The notes: generated by a model not told the origin, from the letters alone. DNA of 21,646 nt from an uncultured Arcobacteraceae bacterium (GCA_964022095.1 CAXHZO010000027.1:1-21646); one strand, 5' to 3'; shown: positions 3,126 through 11,872, counted from the first letter of the stretch. Numbers and translations: made by a program.

Positions 3126-5475
3126 AAAAAAGCTAATAGTATTTCCTACACATAGGTCCATTAGGACCTATCTTTCAAAACAAAAAGATACAAATAAACT
3201 ACTTCCCTTTTGTATTACTATTGATGAATTTCTAAAAAAAAGTATCACTTTAAATGGTAAAAAATATTGTGAAGAAGAACAAAGAGTTCTTTTTTTAAAT
3301 GAAGCTATCAAAAATACTAATATTATAAAGTTAGGTATTTCTTCAGAGTTTTCAAAATTTTTAAAACAAAGTGATTATATATATAGATTTTTTTTAGAAA
3401 TATCTAGTGAAAAAATAGATATAAATGAGATACAAAATGTAGATTCATATGAATTTTATGAAGAACATTTGAGTATTTTAAAAAATATAAAAACTAATTA
3501 TGAAAATATTTTAGAAAGAGAAAACTTTGTAGATAGAGTAAATTTAGATAAATTTTATACTATAAATAAAAAATTTATTTCTAAATTTGATGATATTGAA
3601 CTTGATTTCGAAGGATATTTTACAAAAGTAGAGTTTGAAATAGTTCAAGAAATTTCATTAATAAAAAAACTTCAAATCAATTTTCATAGCAATAATTATA
3701 ATAAAAAATCTATTTCTTTATTTAATGAAATATTTGATTATGAGTTTAAAGAAAACTATGATTATAAAATAGATCTAACAAATAAAGTAGTAATTGAAGA
3801 ATTAGAAGTTAGTTCAAAGTTACAAGATTGTGTTGTAAAAGGTTTCAGTTCAAGATTAAATCAAATAGCATTTATAAAACAAAGTGTAACAAAGGCAGTG
3901 GAATGTGGAATTGATCCATCTAATATCGCTGTAATATTGCCAGATGAAAATTTTGCCCAATCGATACAGTTGTTTGATAATGAAAAATATTTTAACTACG
4001 CAATGGGTAAAAGTATTAAAAACTACAAATTATATGAAGTGGCTTATGCAATTTATTCATATATCAGTGAAGATGAAATTAAGTATATTAAAAATTTAGA
4101 GTATTTGAAAATAGACAAAAATGCAATAGATGAAACTATTAAAAAAGTTTGGAAGTATAATTGTACAAAAGAAATTTTTGAAATAATTACAAATTATATT
4201 AAAAGTTTTGAATCTAATGAAGAGATTTTAGAAAAATATGATGAACTTCTTTACAAATTAAATATTTTAATCTTTTCAAGTCAAAATAAAATATTAGTTA
4301 AAGATGTTTATAAAATTTTTTTACAAAAAATCTCTACAATTACAATAGATGATGTTAATTCTGGAAAGATTACTGTTCTAGGGCTACTTGAAACAAGAGC
4401 TGTTGATTTTGAATGTGTAATTATTTGTGATTTTAATGAAGAGTTTATTCCAAAAAAATCTGTAAAAGATAAATTTTTATCAACAAATATAAAACAAAAA
4501 GTAGGTCTTCCTACTTCAAGTGATAGAGAGTCTTTACAAAAGTACTATTATAAAAGATTGATTAATAGTTCAAAAAAACTATTTGTATCATTTGTATTAA
4601 ATGATGTTAGTCAAATTTCAAGATTTGCAAATGAGCTTTTTGATAAAAAAGTTCAAACAAAAACAGAAGACAATAGCTATAAACATATACTTTATAATAA
4701 CCACTCAATAAGCTATTTTGATGAAAAGATAGAAGATAGTATTGATTTAAGTAAGTTTACGTGGTCAGCAAGCTCTTTGAAGACTTATTTACAGTGTAAA
4801 AGAAGGTTTTATTTAAATTATATCTTAAAAATCAAAGAACATGATATTTCTCTTTCTCCAAAACCTTATGAACTTGGTAATATTATTCATAATATTCTAG
4901 AAGAGTATTATAAAAGTGACTCTAGAGATTTTAAGAAAATTGAAGAATTATTCACAAAATATAAATCAACGAATGCTTTTTTAACTCTTGATTTAGAGAT
5001 TTGGAAGAAAAAAATTTATGAGTTTTATATTAAAGATACTCAAAGATTAAAAAATGCTCAAATAATTGGAATAGAAAAATCATTTAATTGCACTTTTGAA
5101 GGTATTAATATTAAAGGTACAGTTGACAGAGTTGATAAAGTTGATGATAGACTAGAAGTTTTAGATTATAAAACATCGAGTTCATTAAAAGTAGATACAA
5201 TTAAAACATACGAAAAAAGCACTGATTTTCAACTAGAATTCTATTATATAGCAATGAGTGAGATTTATAAAACTGATAAAATTGATTGTTTTTATTATGA
5301 CTTATCAAATAATACTATAAAAGAAGAAATAGCTTTAGATAAAAAGCTTGAACTTTTAGTTACAAAATTTGATGAAATAAAAGAGTTATCAAAAGATAAA
5401 ATATCTTTTGATAAATGTGAAGAGAAATCGACTTGTTTGTATTGCCCATATAAAATTATTTGTAATAGAGAATAA
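3115..5475 (+). CDS. addB: AddB-like DNA repair nuclease subunit (inactive helicase fold plus C-terminal PD-(D/E)XK nuclease with Fe-S staple)
   Basis: LIVFPT start, GLLETRAVDF degenerate helicase motif, SASSLKTYLQC...GTVDRVD...LDYKTS...FQLEFY...CLYCPYKIIC nuclease motifs. Same position after the cco operon as Campylobacter addB. Confidence 0.85.
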   Translation: MQFKKKLIVFPTHRSIRTYLSKQKDTNKLLPFCITIDEFLKKSITLNGKKYCEEEQRVLFLNEAIKNTNIIKLGISSEFSKFLKQSDYIYRFFLEISSEKIDINEIQNVDSYEFYEEHLSILKNIKTNYENILERENFVDRVNLDKFYTINKKFISKFDDIELDFEGYFTKVEFEIVQEISLIKKLQINFHSNNYNKKSISLFNEIFDYEFKENYDYKIDLTNKVVIEELEVSSKLQDCVVKGFSSRLNQIAFIKQSVTKAVECGIDPSNIAVILPDENFAQSIQLFDNEKYFNYAMGKSIKNYKLYEVAYAIYSYISEDEIKYIKNLEYLKIDKNAIDETIKKVWKYNCTKEIFEIITNYIKSFESNEEILEKYDELLYKLNILIFSSQNKILVKDVYKIFLQKISTITIDDVNSGKITVLGLLETRAVDFECVIICDFNEEFIPKKSVKDKFLSTNIKQKVGLPTSSDRESLQKYYYKRLINSSKKLFVSFVLNDVSQISRFANELFDKKVQTKTEDNSYKHILYNNHSISYFDEKIEDSIDLSKFTWSASSLKTYLQCKRRFYLNYILKIKEHDISLSPKPYELGNIIHNILEEYYKSDSRDFKKIEELFTKYKSTNAFLTLDLEIWKKKIYEFYIKDTQRLKNAQIIGIEKSFNCTFEGINIKGTVDRVDKVDDRLEVLDYKTSSSLKVDTIKTYEKSTDFQLEFYYIAMSEIYKTDKIDCFYYDLSNNTIKEEIALDKKLELLVTKFDEIKELSKDKISFDKCEEKSTCLYCPYKIICNRE

Positions 5476-5595
5476 ATTAAATAATATTAATCTTCATTAT
5501 TTATTAAGGAATAAAAAACTATAATCTCTGCTTAATTTGTATTTGCTGTATATAAAGTATACAAAGATATATATATTTAATAGAGAAACTTAGTA

Positions 5596-5601
5596 TATAA
5601 T
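5596..5601 (+). promoter_or_regulatory. Putative sigma70 -10 box (TATAAT) for porin 1; predicted TSS ~5607-5608
   Basis: Perfect TATAAT 84 nt upstream of the ATG at 5685. An adjacent TATACT at 5602-5607 is an alternative. Confidence 0.6.
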
Positions 5602-5606
5602 TATAC

Positions 5607-5646
5607 TGTTCTTCTAAAATTTCGAAATATATTGCGCGAATATATT
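5607..5646 (+). promoter_or_regulatory. Porin-1 5' leader element antisense to the porin-3 ribosome-binding region, followed by a hairpin with GCGCG loop
   Basis: 5607-5628 TGTTCTTCTAAAATTTCGAAAT vs 11325-11346 TGTTCTCCTAAAATTTCGAAAT (21/22 identical on the + strand, while the genes are on opposite strands). Hairpin AATATATT-GCGCG-AATATATT at 5626-5646. Confidence 0.65.
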
Positions 5647-5684
5647 AAGAATAAAAAATAAAATTAGTAATTTAAGGAATTAAA

Positions 5685-6746
5685 ATGAAAAAAATTAGCT
5701 TAGTAGCTTGTGGCTTATTATTATCTTCTTCTATGGCATTTGGTGCAGATTCAATTGATGATGCATTTAAATCAGGAACAGTATCTGGAGATATCACATT
5801 ATATGGACTTCAGACTGACAGAAAAGGTGGAAAGAAAGATGTAGGTTTCTCTGCTGCAACTACTGGTTTAGCATATGAAACTGCATCATACATGGGTTTA
5901 AATGCAAAAATGGGATTCAGAGCAGGTCACGTATTTGGTAATTCAGCAGATTTTGAAAATGATGCATTAATGACTGAAGCATATGTTAAATATGCAACTG
6001 ATGGAATTGCATTATCTGTTGGTAGACAAGAGATTGATTTAGAGTGGTTAGGTGATTACAATGAGTCTGTAGTTGCTGCAATTACTGCAATTCCAAATAC
6101 AACTATTGTTTTAGGATATGTTGATAGACAAGCTGCTGCTGATGAAGATGAAATTGGTACTTTCGGTGAAATCACTGAAGATGGTGCATATGTTGCAGAT
6201 ATTAAATATTCAGGAATTGAAGGTGTTGAATTAAACCCTTACTTTTACTCTGCTGTTGATGTAGCTGATTTTTATGGTTTAAAAGCTGGTTTCTCAACTG
6301 ATACATTTGGTGTAATTGCACAATATGCAGCTTCAAGTGAAGAGACAGGACCAGATGGTTCAATTGCTAACTTTGAAATTAGTACAGGTATTGCAGATCT
6401 TTCTCTAGCAGCTGGTTATATCACAACTGATTCAGAAGGTGGTGTTGGTTCAATTGCTGCATATGGTGATAATGTAACTCCATTTGATAATGGTGATGAT
6501 AACTATGAAACTGATGCTGATACAGTATATGGTTCTGCTGAGTACTCTATTGGAAATGCAACTGCTGGTGTATTATATGGTGAAACTGAATTTGGTTCTT
6601 CTGAATCAAGTGAGTTAAATCTTTACTCTTCTTATGCATTAACAGATTCTTTATCTTTAGGATTATTATATGTTAATTATGATTTAGAAGGTTCAGATTC
6701 TTCAGATTACCAAGATTTTGCAGCTACATTAGCTTACGAATTTTAA
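5685..6746 (+). CDS. Outer-membrane porin 1 (Opr/OprD-like family), strongly acidic
   Basis: Signal peptide, then ADSIDDAFKSGTVSG, VGRQEIDLEW motif, alternating beta-strand pattern, C-terminal YEF; AAGGA RBS at 5674-5678. Confidence 0.9.
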   Translation: MKKISLVACGLLLSSSMAFGADSIDDAFKSGTVSGDITLYGLQTDRKGGKKDVGFSAATTGLAYETASYMGLNAKMGFRAGHVFGNSADFENDALMTEAYVKYATDGIALSVGRQEIDLEWLGDYNESVVAAITAIPNTTIVLGYVDRQAAADEDEIGTFGEITEDGAYVADIKYSGIEGVELNPYFYSAVDVADFYGLKAGFSTDTFGVIAQYAASSEETGPDGSIANFEISTGIADLSLAAGYITTDSEGGVGSIAAYGDNVTPFDNGDDNYETDADTVYGSAEYSIGNATAGVLYGETEFGSSESSELNLYSSYALTDSLSLGLLYVNYDLEGSDSSDYQDFAATLAYEF

Positions 6747-6751
6747 TTATA

Positions 6752-6782
6752 AATAATTTAGGAGATCTTCTCCTAAATTATT
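6752..6782. terminator. Likely bidirectional intrinsic terminator between convergent porin 1 and prfB
   Basis: Perfect 14-bp inverted repeat AATAATTTAGGAGA-TCT-TCTCCTAAATTATT. Confidence 0.8.
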
Positions 6783-6800
6783 AAATAAAATATAAAACTT

Positions 6801-7898
6801 TTATTTAGTAGAAGTTGCTATTAACACATCTTCTATAACCTTTGTTATATCCCCATCTAAAATTGCATCTACATTTGAATACCCAATATTACTTCTAGTA
6901 TCTTTAATTTGTTGATATGGCTGTAATACATAAGATCTAATTTGATGCCCCCAACCAATTTCACTTTTTTCAATACCGTCTTTATCTGCTTGTTGTTTTT
7001 CAAGTTCTAGTTCATATAGTCTAGATTTAAGCATTTTCATTGCACTTGCTTTATTTTTGTGTTGAGATCTATCATTTTGACACTGTACAACTATTCCACT
7101 TTCTATATGTGTAATTCTAATTGCACTTTCTGTTTTATTTACATGTTGTCCCCCAGCACCACTAGCTCTGTATGTATCAATTCTAATATCTTTATCTTCT
7201 ATCTCAATATCAATATTATCATCAATTTCTGGACTTGCCATAACTGAAGCAAATGATGTGTGTCTTTTTGCATTTGAATCAAAAGGTGAAATTCTTACAA
7301 GTCTATGAATTCCATTTTCAGCTTTCATATATCCATAGGCATTTTCACCTTTAATCATAAATGATACATCTTTAATTCCTGCTTCTTCTCCTGGCTGATA
7401 ATCTAGTAGTTCTACTTTAAAATTATTTCTTTCTGCCCATCTTAAATACATTCTGTAAAGCATGCTTGCCCAGTCTTGAGATTCTGTACCACCTGCACCT
7501 GGATGAATAGAGATTATCGCATTTGAACTATCATCAGGATTACTAAGCATTACAGATATTTCAGTAGATTTGATTAAATCTTCAAGCTCGTTGGCTTCTT
7601 CATAAAGTAGTTCAAAAGTATCTTCATCTTTCTCTTCAGTTGCTAATTCATAAAGATCATTTGTTCCACTTAATGCTTCATTTGCTTTGTTGAATTTTGA
7701 GAGTTTTGATAAAATTCTATTTTTTTCAATTCCTATTTTTGTAGCATTTTCTACATCATTCCAAAAATCTTGGTCTGACTCTAACTCTTCAATCTCTTTT
7801 AGTCTAGTATTTAACCCCTCAGGTTTTAAAATACCTTCAATATTTTTTAATTTAGTATTTAATAGTTTAATTAATTCGCTATATTCGTATGCATCCAT
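6801..7898 (-). CDS. prfB: Peptide chain release factor 2
   Basis: GGQ motif ([13 protein letters not shown]), SPF anticodon-mimic tripeptide (RISPF), WGHQIRSYV. Single open frame. Confidence 0.98.
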
Positions 7899-7971
7899 GT
7901 AAGTAAAATCCTTTTAAAAAAGTAATTATACTTTAAATTTGTATAAGAAGTGGTTAGTTTAAAATAAACAT

Positions 7972-8004
7972 AAAAAAAGGTCTAAAGAAAACTCTTTAGA
8001 CCTT
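7972..8004 (-). terminator. Intrinsic terminator of porin 2
   Basis: 12-bp stem AAGGTCTAAAGA-AAAC-TCTTTAGACCTT with an A-run at 7972-7978 (U-tract on the minus strand), 25 nt past the porin-2 stop. Confidence 0.88.
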
Positions 8005-8029
8005 AATAGTAGGAAAGTATGTCAAAAAA

Positions 8030-9190
8030 TTAGAATTTGTAAGATAAGTAAACTCTTGATCTATAATCATAAGAGTAGTCACCACCAAATGTTGAATACA
8101 TGATTTTTGTAGATAAGTTTTTATTAAATTTATATTTTGCAGTAATATTTGTTTCAGAAGAATCATCACCTCCATCTGTTTCCCAATCTGTATAAGAAGC
8201 AGATAATCCTAAACCATTACCAAATTTATATCCTAAATCAAGTTTATATGCATCAGTTTGCGCATCATAGTTTCCAGAAGAAATTGGAGCTGCCGTAAAG
8301 ATCTCATCTGCCCCAGAACCTATTCCAGATTCAATCTCTGCACCAGAATCAATTGTAGTATATGCAGCTGCTGCTGAGAAACCTCCAAATTTACCAGATA
8401 ATTTTACACCGTATTCTTTATTTTTTGTTTCTACATTACCAGCTGCACCATTGTCAGATTGGTAAGTTTGTACTTCTAATGTAATTGGAGATAATTTATA
8501 TGCTGCTTGTGCATAAAAAATCTTTGCATCATCATCTAAAGAACCATTTTCTGGTTTAGCTTGTAAATATTGAGCTTCTAATGTTAAGTTATCAATAGAT
8601 TTATTTTTTGCATAGATTGTATATGCACCATCTCCTGCTTGATCAAATTTAGGTACATTACCGTTAAGGTCTGTTCTATTTTGATATTTATCAACATATG
8701 CTACAACTAAAGTAGTTTGAGGTAAATCAGTATTAGCTAAAACTATACCTTCAAAAGATTGTTTTAAAATTCTTGAACCAGAACCTGCTACTAATCTAGT
8801 TTTAATATATTGTCTACCAACTTTAACTGTAGTATTTTCAATGCCATATGATAAAAATGCTTGAGACATAACTGAACCTGATACGTCCATATCTTTTGCA
8901 TAGTTACCAGCTTCATCATCAATATTTCCTACATGCGCAGTTTGAAATGTAACTCCAGCTTTTAATCCATAGTATGAACCAGTTGTTAATGATAAGTTTC
9001 CACCATTTGACCAAATTGAAGATTTTGCATCTGCACCTGACTCTTTTTCTTTTTGAAAGTATAAAGATTTGATTTCACCTTTAACTTTAGCGTCTGCGAA
9101 AGCTTGCGCTAAAGAATCAGCTGATACGGTTGTTGTTAATCCAGCAACTGCTAAAGAAGCTACTAAACTTAATTTTGCGATTTTTTTCAT
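8030..9190 (-). CDS. Outer-membrane porin 2 (OprD/Opr-like family)
   Basis: Signal peptide MKKIAKLSLVA, ADSLAQAFADAKVKGEIK, KVGRQYI...QSFEG motif, C-terminal YKF; AGGAG RBS. Confidence 0.9.
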   Translation of the reverse strand: MKKIAKLSLVASLAVAGLTTTVSADSLAQAFADAKVKGEIKSLYFQKEKESGADAKSSIWSNGGNLSLTTGSYYGLKAGVTFQTAHVGNIDDEAGNYAKDMDVSGSVMSQAFLSYGIENTTVKVGRQYIKTRLVAGSGSRILKQSFEGIVLANTDLPQTTLVVAYVDKYQNRTDLNGNVPKFDQAGDGAYTIYAKNKSIDNLTLEAQYLQAKPENGSLDDDAKIFYAQAAYKLSPITLEVQTYQSDNGAAGNVETKNKEYGVKLSGKFGGFSAAAAYTTIDSGAEIESGIGSGADEIFTAAPISSGNYDAQTDAYKLDLGYKFGNGLGLSASYTDWETDGGDDSSETNITAKYKFNKNLSTKIMYSTFGGDYSYDYRSRVYLSYKF

Positions 9191-9233
9191 TTTTAATTGT
9201 TCTCCTAAAATTATATATCAAATATGAGTTGGT

Positions 9234-9267
9234 ATTTTAATGTGTTAAAGTTACTAATTGATTACAA
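9234..9267 (-). promoter_or_regulatory. Putative porin-2 promoter: 7-4-7 direct repeat, 10-nt spacer, TAAAAT -10
   Basis: Minus strand reads TTGTAAT-CAAT-TAGTAAC-TTTAACACAT-TAAAAT. Confidence 0.6.
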
Positions 9268-9283
9268 TAATTTAAGTTAAACA

Positions 9284-9353
9284 TAAAAAGGGGAAGTATA
9301 AAAATACTTCCCCTTTTAAGATTTCGAATTTTTAAGACACCAAAATTTGATGT
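9284..9353 (-). ncRNA. Candidate ~70-nt trans-acting antisense sRNA
   Basis: TATAAT at 9365-9360, then ACAUCAA-AUU-UUGGUGU 5' hairpin, a single-stranded segment complementary to the porin-3 RBS region, and a terminator hairpin with U-tract. Confidence 0.65.
9285..9317 (-). terminator. Intrinsic terminator (ends the candidate sRNA and probably the cytochrome c transcript)
   Basis: Perfect 14-bp stem AAAAGGGGAAGTAT-AAAA-ATACTTCCCCTTTT, ending in a U-run on the minus strand. Confidence 0.88.
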
Positions 9354-9359
9354 AGCGAA

Positions 9360-9393
9360 ATTATAGATAGATTTTATTACAGTTAAGTTACAA
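9360..9393 (-). promoter_or_regulatory. Putative sRNA promoter: 7-4-7 direct repeat, 10-nt spacer, TATAAT -10
   Basis: Minus strand reads TTGTAAC-TTAA-CTGTAAT-AAAATCTATC-TATAAT; same geometry as the porin-2 promoter. Confidence 0.6.
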
Positions 9394-9413
9394 ATAAATC
9401 AAAGAAATTTGAT

Positions 9414-10031
9414 TTATTTTAAAGACTGCAGATAGTTATATGTATCTTTCATATCTTGTTCTGATATGGCATAAGCATAAGAAGACATCTGAACCGCACT
9501 ACCTAAATCATAAGTACCATTTCTATATCCTTTTATAGAACCTTCATACTCTTCAAAAGTTTGATTAGCAATTTTGCTTGACATTCCTGGTTCTTTTAAA
9601 CCTTTTTCTCCATGGCATACTTGACATTTGTTTATATAAATATTTTTACCATTTTCTGAGCTAGCAATTTTTTCTTCTATCTTTTTTTCTTTTTTTTCTT
9701 TTTCTTTTTTAGCTTCAAGCCTTGCTAAAACTCTTTTTTCTAAGTCTTCTTGAGATATGTTAGCGTTTGTATTTACAAATGCTGTAGAAGTTGTTCCTTT
9801 TTTAAGAATATAGATATAGTTGTTATTATTTATTTTTATGTCATCAACTCTCCAACCGTCATTTTTCATATCTTTTAGTGAGTATTGTGATTTACACTCC
9901 CCACCATCTAGTGCAACTTTTTCTAAAGTTGTAAGATCTGTGTGATTTTCTTTGAAACACATAGTTGTTTGTGAAAAAGCTAGAGTTGATAGAACGATTG
10001 TTGAAAGTGATATTTTTATTAGACTATTCAT
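9414..10031 (-). CDS. Periplasmic monoheme c-type cytochrome (c553-like C-terminal domain) with an extra N-terminal domain
   Basis: Signal peptide, N-terminal domain with two Cys, K/E-rich helical linker, then GKNIYINKCQVCHG (CxxCH) and a distal Met; AAGGA RBS. Confidence 0.85.
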   Translation of the reverse strand: MNSLIKISLSTIVLSTLAFSQTTMCFKENHTDLTTLEKVALDGGECKSQYSLKDMKNDGWRVDDIKINNNNYIYILKKGTTSTAFVNTNANISQEDLEKRVLARLEAKKEKEKKEKKIEEKIASSENGKNIYINKCQVCHGEKGLKEPGMSSKIANQTFEEYEGSIKGYRNGTYDLGSAVQMSSYAYAISEQDMKDTYNYLQSLK

Positions 10032-10055
10032 TATTATCCTTTTATTTGATAAAAG

Positions 10056-10064
10056 ATTTTATCA
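10056..10064 (-). promoter_or_regulatory. Putative extended -10 promoter (TGATAAAAT) for the cytochrome c gene
   Basis: TGnTAAAAT 25 nt upstream of the ATG and downstream of the porin-3 terminator. Confidence 0.55.
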
Positions 10065-10085
10065 TAAATAAAACTAAAATGAAAT

Positions 10086-10120
10086 AAAAAAAGGTAAAGA
10101 GTTAAAACTCTTTACCTTTT
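10086..10120 (-). terminator. Intrinsic terminator of porin 3
   Basis: 14-bp stem AAAAGGTAAAGAGT-TAAA-ACTCTTTACCTTTT with an A-run (U-tract on the minus strand). Confidence 0.9.
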
Positions 10121-10147
10121 GACGAGTTAGTAGTTTAAGTATACTTA

Positions 10148-11323
10148 TTAGAAAGTATATTGAACGTGGATTCTTCCTCTTTCTCCGTCATTAGAACCTT
10201 CATAATCAACTTGACCATATCTTAAGTAAGCCATGAAGTTTTTAGCTGGTTTCCAAGTTAATTGACCATATACTTCATCAGTATCATTGTCTAAACCAGT
10301 ATTAGTGTTTTCAAATGTTAAAGTATTGTAGTTTAATGCTACGTTAACACCAGACATTACATCTACATTTAAGTTAGTTTTGATTGTACTTCCGTCTTTA
10401 GTACCATTAAGTTGAGTTGCCCAACCTTGGAATGCTGCTTCTGCATCTGTATCAACAGCTACAAAACCACCTTTTTTACCAGTTTGACCATAACCAATGT
10501 TACCACCAACGATACCAGCTTTAAATTTAGAACCAACAAACCATAATTTGTTGTCTCCACTTGCACCATCAAATTCTAATTGAGTATATCTAGCATATGG
10601 AGATAGTTTTGCAACACCTGCATCAATTGAAGCTTTTGCTCCTACTGAATAAGAGTCAAATGTATCATTTACATCAATGTAAGTTGCATCTAAAGCAACA
10701 CCTGCAAACTTACTCATAGCTTGTAATACAATTAAGTTTTCTTTATTAATTTCATTAGCTGTAGCAGTAGCTAAACCTAATTTAGAAACTTGATCTCCAC
10801 CCATTAAGTTAGTTTCATTCATGTATGCTCCAACTAATGTTACAGGACCTAATGTAGTAACTGCAGCAATACCTGTACCTTCTTGAGTACCAGAAATTGT
10901 ATCATAAACATCAGTTTGTGGTACATTTAAACCTTGAGTACCTAAGATAATTGAAGTATTTGCAAATCCTGTATATGTAAAGTTGTTATATACAGTATAA
11001 ATGTCTCCACCAAAATAGTTAGTAACACCATTGTTACTTGTACCATCAGAAGTGTCAGAACCACCAAGGATAGCTCCAACGTAAGTATATGATAAGTCTT
11101 CAGTTATTTTAGAGATTAAACCTAAAGCAATTTTTGTATTGTTTTGAGTGTACTCATTTGAACCAGTGTTATTATCTCTATTTCTATCATCATATCTCAT
11201 AGTTGCGTAACCTAAGATAGATGTATTTTTAATTGCATCTTCTAATGCACCTGCAGATGCAGTTGTAGTGAATCCAGCTACAGCTACTGCTGCTACTAAA
11301 CTTAATTTTGCGATTTTTTTCAT
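10148..11323 (-). CDS. porA: Outer-membrane porin 3, Campylobacter MOMP/PorA-like major outer membrane protein
   Basis: Signal peptide KLSLVAAVAVAGF, mature start ALEDAIKNTSILGYATMRYD (compare the MOMP start LEEAIKDVDVSGVLRYRYD), C-terminal YTF, highly expressed-type codons (AAC/TAC/TTC), long leader and strong terminator. Confidence 0.8.
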   Translation of the reverse strand: MKKIAKLSLVAAVAVAGFTTTASAGALEDAIKNTSILGYATMRYDDRNRDNNTGSNEYTQNNTKIALGLISKITEDLSYTYVGAILGGSDTSDGTSNNGVTNYFGGDIYTVYNNFTYTGFANTSIILGTQGLNVPQTDVYDTISGTQEGTGIAAVTTLGPVTLVGAYMNETNLMGGDQVSKLGLATATANEINKENLIVLQAMSKFAGVALDATYIDVNDTFDSYSVGAKASIDAGVAKLSPYARYTQLEFDGASGDNKLWFVGSKFKAGIVGGNIGYGQTGKKGGFVAVDTDAEAAFQGWATQLNGTKDGSTIKTNLNVDVMSGVNVALNYNTLTFENTNTGLDNDTDEVYGQLTWKPAKNFMAYLRYGQVDYEGSNDGERGRIHVQYTF

Positions 11324-11428
11324 TTGTTCTCCTAAAATTTCGAAATCTTTATCAGTTTACCGGAGCGCGCGAACTTGTTTAAAACCATTGTTTCAAAACT
11401 CTACCGGTTTACCGTTGCGTCCATTCTA
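11324..11428 (-). promoter_or_regulatory. Porin-3 -10 box (TAGAAT, 11428-11423) and ~90-nt GC-rich structured 5' UTR
   Basis: GC-rich island in otherwise AT-rich intergenic DNA; ACCGG/CCGGU pairing; repeated CGGTAAAC; AGGAG RBS at 11333-11329. Confidence 0.6.
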
Positions 11429-11471
11429 CATCACTAAATTTTAAAGTTTTCTTAAAATTGTGCTTTTGAGT

Positions 11472-11530
11472 GTTAATTAACTGTTAATTTAAGTTAACTT
11501 TTAATTAATTGATTATTAATGCTGTGTTAA
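11472..11530. repeat. Helically phased (G/A)TTAA repeats upstream of the porin-3 promoter
   Basis: RTTAA at 11472, 11483, 11493, 11504, 11515 and 11526 (spacing 11, 10, 11, 11, 11). Confidence 0.55.
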
Positions 11531-11554
11531 TGCTATTATAGGAGTTTTTTAGTC

Positions 11555-11872
11555 TTATTTATAATTTGATAAAGATACTTTGCAGTTTTTCAAAATATCT
11601 GGTTTCGTGATTTTTAGTTTTAAGTTATTTATTTTATACAGTTTGTATAATAGGGATTGTACATAAATTATTGCATCTTCAAGAAGTTCAAATTTTTTCT
11701 TTTTTAACTCTTTTTTTATAAGAGTAGAAACTTCAGAATAATCAATAAAATAATCAGCAGAATAATCATAATCAAAAGATAGATTTATAATTATTCTTTG
11801 TTTACTTATTCTTTCAAAAGGAAGTAATCCAATAATACATTTAAATGTTAATTCTTCAACATGTACTCTCAT
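11555..11872 (-). CDS. folB: Dihydroneopterin aldolase
   Basis: IIGLLPFER...Q, IDYSEV, FELLE, ITKP motifs; conserved plsY-folB linkage. Confidence 0.88.
   Translation of the reverse strand: MRVHVEELTFKCIIGLLPFERISKQRIIINLSFDYDYSADYFIDYSEVSTLIKKELKKKKFELLEDAIIYVQSLLYKLYKINNLKLKITKPDILKNCKVSLSNYK

Follow-up and report, generated by a model that had tools for sequence, protein, structure and literature searches.

Can the 5' end of one porin mRNA act as an antisense RNA on the ribosome-binding region of another? The question is raised by a 21.6-kb contig from an uncultured bacterium of the Arcobacteraceae type, the whole of which was analysed here and is referred to as the window. Three porin genes are found inside 6 kb of it, namely porin 1 (5685-6746, plus strand), an Opr family porin of 353 aa; porin 2 (8030-9190, minus strand), of 386 aa; and porin 3 (10148-11323, minus strand), a MOMP-like porin of 391 aa that is presumed to be the major porin. 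A preliminary description of the window had proposed that two RNAs, the porin-1 leader and a small RNA (sRNA), are antisense to the Shine-Dalgarno (SD) sequence of porin 3. On the sequence comparisons reported below, the best reading is that the porin genes may engage in antisense RNA-RNA cross-talk in trans, without Hfq, and we would put the probability of this at roughly 45%.

The window belongs to a genome (G000) of 2.57 Mb with a G+C content of 28% and a completeness of 99.99%. A set of 121 genomes of the family was used for comparison, within which a sister species (G001) is the sole other species of the genus.

Antisense complementarity to the porin-3 start

The target site lies in the 5' untranslated region (5' UTR) of porin 3, at 11325-11349 on the minus strand, and comprises the palindrome AUUUCGAAAU and the SD sequence UAGGAGAAC. 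Read on the plus strand, the 25-mer at these positions is the reverse complement of the porin-3 ribosome-binding region, SD included. A second plus-strand occurrence, with 3 mismatches, is at 5607-5631; there the first 22 bases (5607-5628 versus 11325-11346) match at 21 of 22 positions. As porins 1 and 3 are encoded on opposite strands, the sense strand of porin 1 is antisense to the porin-3 mRNA. A further copy, the seed of the candidate sRNA (antisense segment 2; 9318-9342, minus strand), is complementary to the stretch just upstream of and into the porin-3 SD, with 11 + 8 pairs around one mismatch. The two matches of the 25-mer were attained in 0 of 100 shuffles. When the whole genome was searched on both strands with up to 5 mismatches, 7 sites were retrieved, and those with at most 4 mismatches were only 11325 (0), 5607 (3) and the minus-strand site at 9318-9342 (4). 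The antisense match to the porin-3 SD reported in the preliminary description was therefore reproduced, and at up to 4 mismatches it is unique in the genome.

The first of these copies, antisense segment 1 (5607-5628, plus strand), with its 22 pairs to the porin-3 SD region, coincides with the predicted 5' end of the porin-1 mRNA. A predicted -10 box, TATAAT, is located at 5596-5601 (plus strand) and would place the transcription start at about 5607-5608. A TATAAT box likewise stands 6-7 nt before an invariant TGTTCTT(C/T)TA in 12 leaders from 5 genera, and this fixed distance puts the element at the predicted mRNA 5' end. The start at about 5608 on the plus strand that had been proposed earlier is supported by this conserved spacing.

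Duplex prediction with RNAduplex yielded -28.4 kcal/mol for the porin-1 5' end and the porin-3 leader, over 22 contiguous pairs including one G-U, and -24.0 kcal/mol for the candidate sRNA and the same leader. Targets were ranked by comparing duplex energies with those of 2531 translation-start regions of open reading frames (ORFs) of at least 100 aa in the source genome (energies in kcal/mol). For the porin-1 5' end, porin 3 ranked first of 2531 (-28.4, against a mean of -8.0 and a standard deviation of 2.7), followed by porin 2 (-19.3); for the sRNA seed, porin 3 again ranked first of 2531 (-21.3). Both RNAs thereby return porin 3 as the top target, the outcome that the preliminary description had named as a check.

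A second predicted contact is provided by GCGCGAA at 5634-5640 (plus strand), which is complementary to the invariant UUCGCGC element of the porin-3 leader (11367-11373, minus strand). It coincides with a leader hairpin (5626-5646, plus strand) that has an 8-bp A/U stem and a GCGCG loop in the minimum free energy (MFE) fold. GCGCGAA occurs 5 times in the genome, both strands counted; one occurrence is in the porin-1 leader and one, on the same strand, is opposite the porin-3 leader. Cofolding of the porin-1 and porin-3 leaders gave a gain of -22.9 kcal/mol with both contact sites used, and the gains for the other combinations were -18.3 kcal/mol (sRNA with porin 3), -15.4 kcal/mol (porin-1 leader with porin 2) and -3.7 kcal/mol (sRNA with porin 2).

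Conservation in the sister species

Gene order is shared by the sister species, in which all three copies are also present. Between the two species, the three intergenic regions are 88%, 93% and 96% identical, compared with 49-70% for the porin proteins and 58.5% (192/328) at four-fold degenerate positions in four flanking housekeeping genes. On the 5' side of porin 1, the conserved stretch extends from the TATAAT box (5596-5601) to the start codon, and the sequence diverges further upstream. The departures from a perfect complement are a C to U in both species and an A to G in segment 1 of the sister species, both of which still allow G-U pairing. The seed at 9318-9342 is identical in the two species, and the terminator that follows it (9286-9317) shows a G-to-A change in the sister species that is compensated by a C-to-T change. 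Conservation in relatives, which the preliminary description had named as a check, thus holds for the sister species and, in related arrangements, for other genera; the exact sRNA seed was found in only 2 of the 121 genomes.

The porin-3 leader

Across genera, the leaders of major porins share a -10 box TAGAAT, a long-range helix, an invariant GUUCGCGCGC and, immediately ahead of UAGGAGAA, the palindrome AUUUCGAAAU. In the window, the porin-3 5' UTR spans 11324-11428 (minus strand), with TAGAAT at 11428-11423, a predicted transcription start at about 11416 and the conserved long-range helix. In 16 major-porin leaders, this helix comprises 10 pairs, one of which shows compensatory changes in 4 sequences, and the consensus structure leaves the two proposed contact sites, both invariant, without pairing partners and thus predicted to be accessible. 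As no Rfam family matches the porin-3 5' UTR, the leader of the MOMP-like porin looks like an undescribed cis-regulatory leader. A 1241-nt contig spanning 10160-11400 was assembled from the seawater run X2, whose label is RNA-Seq and whose derivation from RNA is a guess; it fits a monocistronic porin-3 transcript with most of the leader, within the limit that contigs cannot show transcript ends.

The conservation of the leader is seen at loci L001, L005, L006, L013, L017, L022, L063, L071, L183 and L184, among others. Upstream of the porin-3 promoter, the region 11430-11555 (minus strand) is 96% identical to the sister species and rich in TTAAC/GTTAA repeats. Its part AAGAAAACTTTAAAATTTAGTG, before the porin-3 -10 box, is kept across genera, for which reason the region may bind a regulator.

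Leaders of porin-1 homologues across the family

Homologues of porin 1 were collected at E values up to 1e-40, which gave 80 matches in 64 of the 121 genomes. The leaders of 75 were analysed, and five matches were left out (G076, at a contig edge; G019 C64, with an ambiguous start; G087; G092; and G110). The G087 leader, examined separately, carries the motif. The anti-SD core TTCT[CT]CTA is present on the mRNA strand in 26 of the 75 leaders, from 8 genera, and on the opposite strand it appears in 3, in two of them as the SD of the gene itself; its base rate in the source genome is 28 of 2523 upstream regions. The core is therefore strongly biased towards the mRNA strand.

Two types of leader were distinguished. 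In type A (genera g1, g7, g11, g19 and g20; n = 12), the -10 box is followed after 6-7 nt by TGTTCTT(C/T)TA and then by a hairpin with a GCGCG-like loop. Type B leaders (g3, g4, g7 and g14) are often preceded by Fur-box-like sequences. Of 10 such leaders in g3, g4 and g7, 9 have the complete CUCC core within a hairpin loop and the tenth has part of it there, on stems that vary in length and sequence; the g14 leaders have weak stems. In the window, an inverted repeat TGTATA..TATACA (5547-5563, plus strand) upstream of the porin-1 promoter is a candidate operator, and similar GTATA..TATAC repeats are found upstream of type A homologues in other genera.

The significance of long complementarity was evaluated by comparing each leader's duplex energy with its genome's own major-porin start to that of dinucleotide-shuffled leaders. 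The resulting z values were -8.5 (G000) and -6.7 (G002) and, with 0 of 100 shuffles as good in each, -8.6 (G001), -8.4 (G087) and -7.3 (G070), so that significant long complementarity is present in five species from three genera (g1, g2 and g19). In genus g2, a 19-mer is present in exactly two perfect copies in each of the two species with a homologue. Relative to their genes the copies are oppositely oriented: the leader of the porin-1 type contains one, the other is opposite the major-porin start, and each shows the 3-T spacing of this genus rather than a 4-T one. A third g2 species, which lacks a porin-1 homologue, has one copy only.

Pattern searches of the 121 genomes with 3 mismatches were matched as often or more by a reversed-pattern control, and for this reason only exact or near-exact matches were used. 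A search for an exact 21-mer in a species-representative genome collection returned 4 matches, three of them unrelated and of higher GC and one in an Arcobacter metagenome-assembled genome (MAG). The latter (L190, contig 301-321) lies in an apparent decayed major-porin leader with a changed SD (the same G-to-A) and no start codon. This decayed leader has the same 26-nt hairpin-forming repeat on both sides, as though a small repeat element had transported or framed it.

As regards the regions upstream of porin-1 homologues, the TGTATA..TATACA inverted repeat of the window (5547-5563) also precedes other homologues, and Fur-box-like GATAATGATAATCATTATC-type sequences precede many of them (L035, L038, L103, L104, L111-L113, L122, L126, L135-L140 and others). 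A single porin family would thus seem to be under two distinct kinds of transcriptional input.

The candidate small RNA

The candidate sRNA unit occupies 9280-9365 on the minus strand, within the 3' flank of a c-type cytochrome gene, and would consist of a -10 box TATAAT (9365-9360), a predicted start at 9353, a 5' hairpin, the seed and an intrinsic terminator, for a length of about 72 nt. The TATAAT box is located 7 nt before a plausible start, the MFE fold has an energy of -23.9 kcal/mol and leaves the seed unpaired, and the terminator (9286-9317, minus strand) has a 14-bp stem and a T run and would end either the sRNA or the cytochrome c transcript's 3' UTR. At the sequence level, the candidate thus has an sRNA-like anatomy, from the -10 box, 5' hairpin and open seed to the terminator with its compensatory change. 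The promoter architecture that the preliminary description had considered common to the sRNA and porin 2 was unconvincing, as a local alignment of the two promoters had a z of 1.9 and scores as high were reached by 29 of 500 shuffles.

Searches for wider occurrence were negative. With up to 2 mismatches, the seed was not found outside the genus in the 121 genomes, and the syntenic spacer of G003, which has the same porin-cytochrome-porin order, is devoid of an sRNA-like element. Rfam returned no match over the whole window at the gathering score and, over 5400-11700 at E up to 1, only a chance snoRNA match.

Evidence against and alternative explanations

Several observations weigh against antisense pairing in trans, both those gathered here and those noted below with the alternative they favour. 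Ten of the shared bases, ATTTCGAAAT, are perfectly palindromic and complementary to every other copy of themselves, whichever way it is oriented; part of the complementarity is thus obtained automatically and may stem from a protein site in common. About 33 other genes of the source genome have a TAGGAGAA ribosome-binding site, and the anti-SD core alone is consequently not specific. Among the homologues of porin 1, 49 of the 75 leaders are without the core, and ten other motif-bearing leaders with a known own target, from eight species, had z values of -0.1 to -2.5, no better than shuffles of A/U-rich sequence. Complementarity in these eight species is limited to the 8-11-nt anti-SD core and, because its duplex energy is no better than that of shuffles, it is motif conservation alone that carries the case there. 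Between the source genome and the sister species, the whole leaders are conserved, beyond the complementary parts. The contigs assembled from four runs (metatranscriptome or uncertain libraries) include pieces of the porin-1 and porin-3 coding regions and none over 5480-5680 or the sRNA seed, which is uninformative either way.

The alternative that survives best, which we still consider unlikely, is that an ancient inverted copy of the major porin's palindrome and SD entered porin-1 leaders and now serves, as a 5'-end or hairpin element, the stability or translation of the porin-1 mRNA itself, the complementarity being historical and not functional. The element indeed resides in its own leader and travels with the family under two upstream types (GTATA..TATAC or Fur-box-like), and in most genera the complementary part measures only 8-11 nt and has no significant duplex energy. 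For 2 of the 17 type B leaders, the predicted fold has CUCC paired close to the SD of the gene itself, and the Arcobacter MAG (L190) contains a decayed, relic-like major-porin leader with the same G-to-A in its SD. Judged by these sequences, a relic origin of the porin-1 element is plausible; neutral decay does not fit the observed conservation. In g1, g2 and g19, the inverted copy is still complementary to its own target over 19-25 nt, an indel difference between genera included, and such retention is unexpected for a relic given that neutral sites are near saturation within one genus. The SD of the porin-1 family itself, of the AAGGA type, is moreover a poor match to the anti-SD, and pairing in cis would span at most 4-5 bp over a long loop. 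As this pairing is absent both from the MFE fold of the porin-1 leader and from the consensus fold of 10 type A leaders, which has 0 pairs, a purely cis role is weakened.

A second alternative is a shared DNA operator, in which ATTTCGAAAT and its flanks would bind a dimeric transcription factor that co-regulates the porins, with RNA complementarity as a by-product. The genome contains just three exact instances of the perfect 10-bp palindrome, each within a porin leader (that of porin 1, of porin 3 and, on contig C5, of porin 4), and for this reason a dimeric DNA-binding regulator is a serious alternative for the palindromic part. In porin 4, the palindrome is on the sense strand, directly before the gene's own GGAGAG ribosome-binding site and with TTGCGCG ahead, and its flanks have the opposite orientation. 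Across genera, the palindrome is invariant without covariation, as sequence-specific recognition would give. As an account of the whole element, an operator nevertheless appears decidedly unlikely. The palindrome of the major porin is fixed beside the SD, some 70-90 nt past the predicted promoter, and that of porin 1 is at +13. Across porin-1 leaders, the conserved part is the non-palindromic anti-SD core, often without the palindrome, and its strand specificity (26 versus 3 of 75) is not predicted by a symmetric DNA site. Such a site would also leave unexplained the second contact, GCGCGAA, and the fact that both substitutions keep G-U pairing.

The third alternative concerns the second antisense copy only and regards 9318-9342 as a plain cytochrome c 3' UTR with no regulatory role, whose likeness to the motif is a remnant. 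Beyond the cytochrome c stop codon (9414), the scan found a single terminator-like site, 9317-9286, and since this sole site follows the seed, the seed may equally be part of the cytochrome c 3' UTR. In addition, G003 has the same gene order without the element, the exact seed is found in only 2 of the 121 genomes (the source genome and the sister species), and porin 3 precedes the next predicted target of the seed by a narrow margin (-21.3 versus -19.6). These points are opposed by a 128-nt stretch that is 93% identical to the sister species versus 58.5% at neutral sites, by a seed that is identical there and unpaired, and by the TATAAT box 7 nt ahead of a plausible start. A 3' UTR location is, furthermore, compatible with a regulatory role. 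Whether as sRNA or as 3' UTR, the seed should be transcribed whenever the cytochrome c gene is. A 3' UTR devoid of any such role is, in our estimate, rather improbable.

Finally, a cis-encoded antisense RNA is ruled out by the distance of the complementary segments from the target (5.7 kb and 2.0 kb), and a divergent ORF using the inverted SD at 5607 was rejected, the minus strand being without a following start codon.

Proposed mechanism

Under the preferred reading of antisense pairing in trans, the porin-1 mRNA would start (at about 5607, the predicted +1) with a pyrimidine-rich anti-SD, which in this genus extends to 22 nt capable of pairing with the porin-3 ribosome-binding region, and the GCGCGAA hairpin loop would add a 7-9-bp contact further up the porin-3 leader. 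A second RNA, either an independent sRNA of about 72 nt or the cytochrome c 3' UTR (from 9353 or 9413, respectively, to about 9280, minus strand), would address the same porin-3 stretch. Pairing in the cell would block 30S binding on the porin-3 mRNA, and the long duplexes would be open to cleavage by RNase III, which is present in the source genome. Expression of an alternative porin would in this way lower the synthesis of the major porin. As the duplex would consume both partners, abundant major-porin mRNA would buffer leaky porin-1 mRNA. Mutually exclusive porin expression, as envisaged in the preliminary description, is a purely speculative extension of this scheme. The absence of Hfq that it had assumed agrees with a profile search (PF17209) of the 99.99% complete source genome, which gave no match; controls were positive in 5 of 14 genomes.

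A broader form of the proposal, which we offer tentatively and with the odds against it, would apply to the family. Leaders of Arcobacteraceae Opr-family porins would carry a portable anti-SD module, at the 5' end or in a hairpin loop and sometimes with a second GC-rich contact, that pairs with two invariant single-stranded elements of the major-porin leader. Titration between mRNAs and RNase III cleavage would then set the composition of the outer membrane without an sRNA chaperone, under whichever input (iron through Fur or another regulator) drives the alternative porin.

Other features of the locus and genome

The assignment of the porins is based on profile matches. Porin 1 belongs to the Opr family porins of NCBIfam (NF033922), scoring 320 bits (cut-off 100; E 1.9e-95), and shares 28% identity with porin 2 (E 1e-19), which in turn matches Porin_4, Campylo_MOMP and OprD. 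Porin 3 falls within Campylo_MOMP (PF05538), with 56.9 bits against a gathering cut-off of 29.6, the aligned part being the N-terminal 155 of 421 profile positions only. The start region of porin 2 (9191-9215, minus strand) contains UUUUAGGAGAACA, which is common to porins 2 and 3. A fourth porin gene (388 aa, with a weak Opr-family match) is found on contig C5 of the source genome, at about 91214-91270 (plus strand; locus L165).

The c-type cytochrome gene (9414-10031, minus strand; 205 aa) is placed between porins 3 and 2. A cytochrome gene of this type between the major porin and a second porin is also found in G003, from another genus (locus L053, 738-1409), and the order is thus conserved. 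A release-factor gene between porins 1 and 2 is convergent with porin 1. The spacer between the two (6750-6790) has a perfect AGGAGA/TCTCCT hairpin, likely a bidirectional terminator, which explains one extra match of the anti-SD core.

On contig C2 of the source genome (193712-193765, plus strand; L164/L166), a gene for a 664-aa TonB-dependent receptor has a Fur-box-like sequence upstream and GTTCTCCTAAAATG in its leader. The closest orthologue (G020) retains only part of this motif, and four other orthologues lack it. A general role of the core in iron-regulated outer-membrane genes was rejected, as it is partly kept in 1 of 5 TonB-receptor orthologues and absent from 4.

Relation to known systems

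In Escherichia coli, antisense RNAs encoded beside an alternative porin gene bring about reciprocal porin expression, as with MicF, which acts on ompF and is found with ompC, and MicC, which acts on ompC and is found with ompN. Each of the two is an sRNA in its own right, transcribed divergently, dependent on Hfq and paired with its target over a short, imperfect stretch. IpeX, an RNA from the 3' side of the nmpC porin locus of a cryptic prophage, lowers OmpC and OmpF. In Staphylococcus aureus, RNAIII and the Rsa RNAs mask SD sequences with C/U-rich hairpin loops, independently of Hfq.

The arrangement described here resembles MicF and MicC in that an antisense element is found by an alternative porin gene and its proposed target is the ribosome-binding region of another porin (for MicC and OmpN, see PMC5745476). 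In contrast to both, the alternative porin's mRNA itself would here supply the main antisense element at its predicted 5' end, with 22 contiguous base pairs and a second site, no Hfq gene found and no Rfam match. With IpeX it would share a regulatory RNA that is tied to the transcript region of one porin and represses other porins, whereas here the RNA is a 5' UTR (with one copy in a 3' UTR or sRNA) of chromosomal genes and is conserved across genera.

Two further cases are similar in their mode of pairing. In Listeria monocytogenes, 5' UTR-mediated mRNA-mRNA pairing of hly and prsA2 couples the expression of a virulence factor and its chaperone (PMC8722363). There, as proposed here, the leader of a coding mRNA acts in trans on a second mRNA; that case, by its title, is one of coupling rather than of ribosome-binding-site blocking, and it concerns a Gram-positive bacterium and no porins. 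Pairing of the icaR 5' and 3' UTRs masks an SD with a C/U-rich loop (PMC3868564). Like RNAIII, the Rsa RNAs and icaR, type B porin-1 leaders present a CUCC anti-SD motif in a hairpin loop. Unlike them, the former being sRNAs and the latter pairing within one mRNA, the loop is part of a porin mRNA leader and its proposed target is the mRNA of another porin.

A full-text search of a limited literature collection retrieved no report of RNA-based porin control or of sRNAs for Arcobacter, and a search by title and abstract, again of a limited collection, for sRNA or antisense control of Campylobacter porA retrieved no description of RNA control of a porin. The main-text passages available from a survey of intergenic regions in Arcobacter sp. 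L (PMC6429828) make no mention of porins. Antisense control of porins as such is known, and its leader-encoded, Hfq-free form is without a described match in these sources. As a sequence feature this form is well supported; as a mechanism it is unproven.

Significance

Antisense control of porins in enterobacteria is textbook knowledge and relies on Hfq and on separate sRNA genes. To our knowledge, Campylobacterota have no Hfq, and we know of little on how they balance their outer-membrane proteins. If antisense pairing between porin mRNAs proves true, these bacteria would employ a simpler arrangement, with the regulator forming part of the competing porin's mRNA itself. It would be a conserved system defined by sequence, and the strikingly conserved leader of the family's major porin would be assigned a function.

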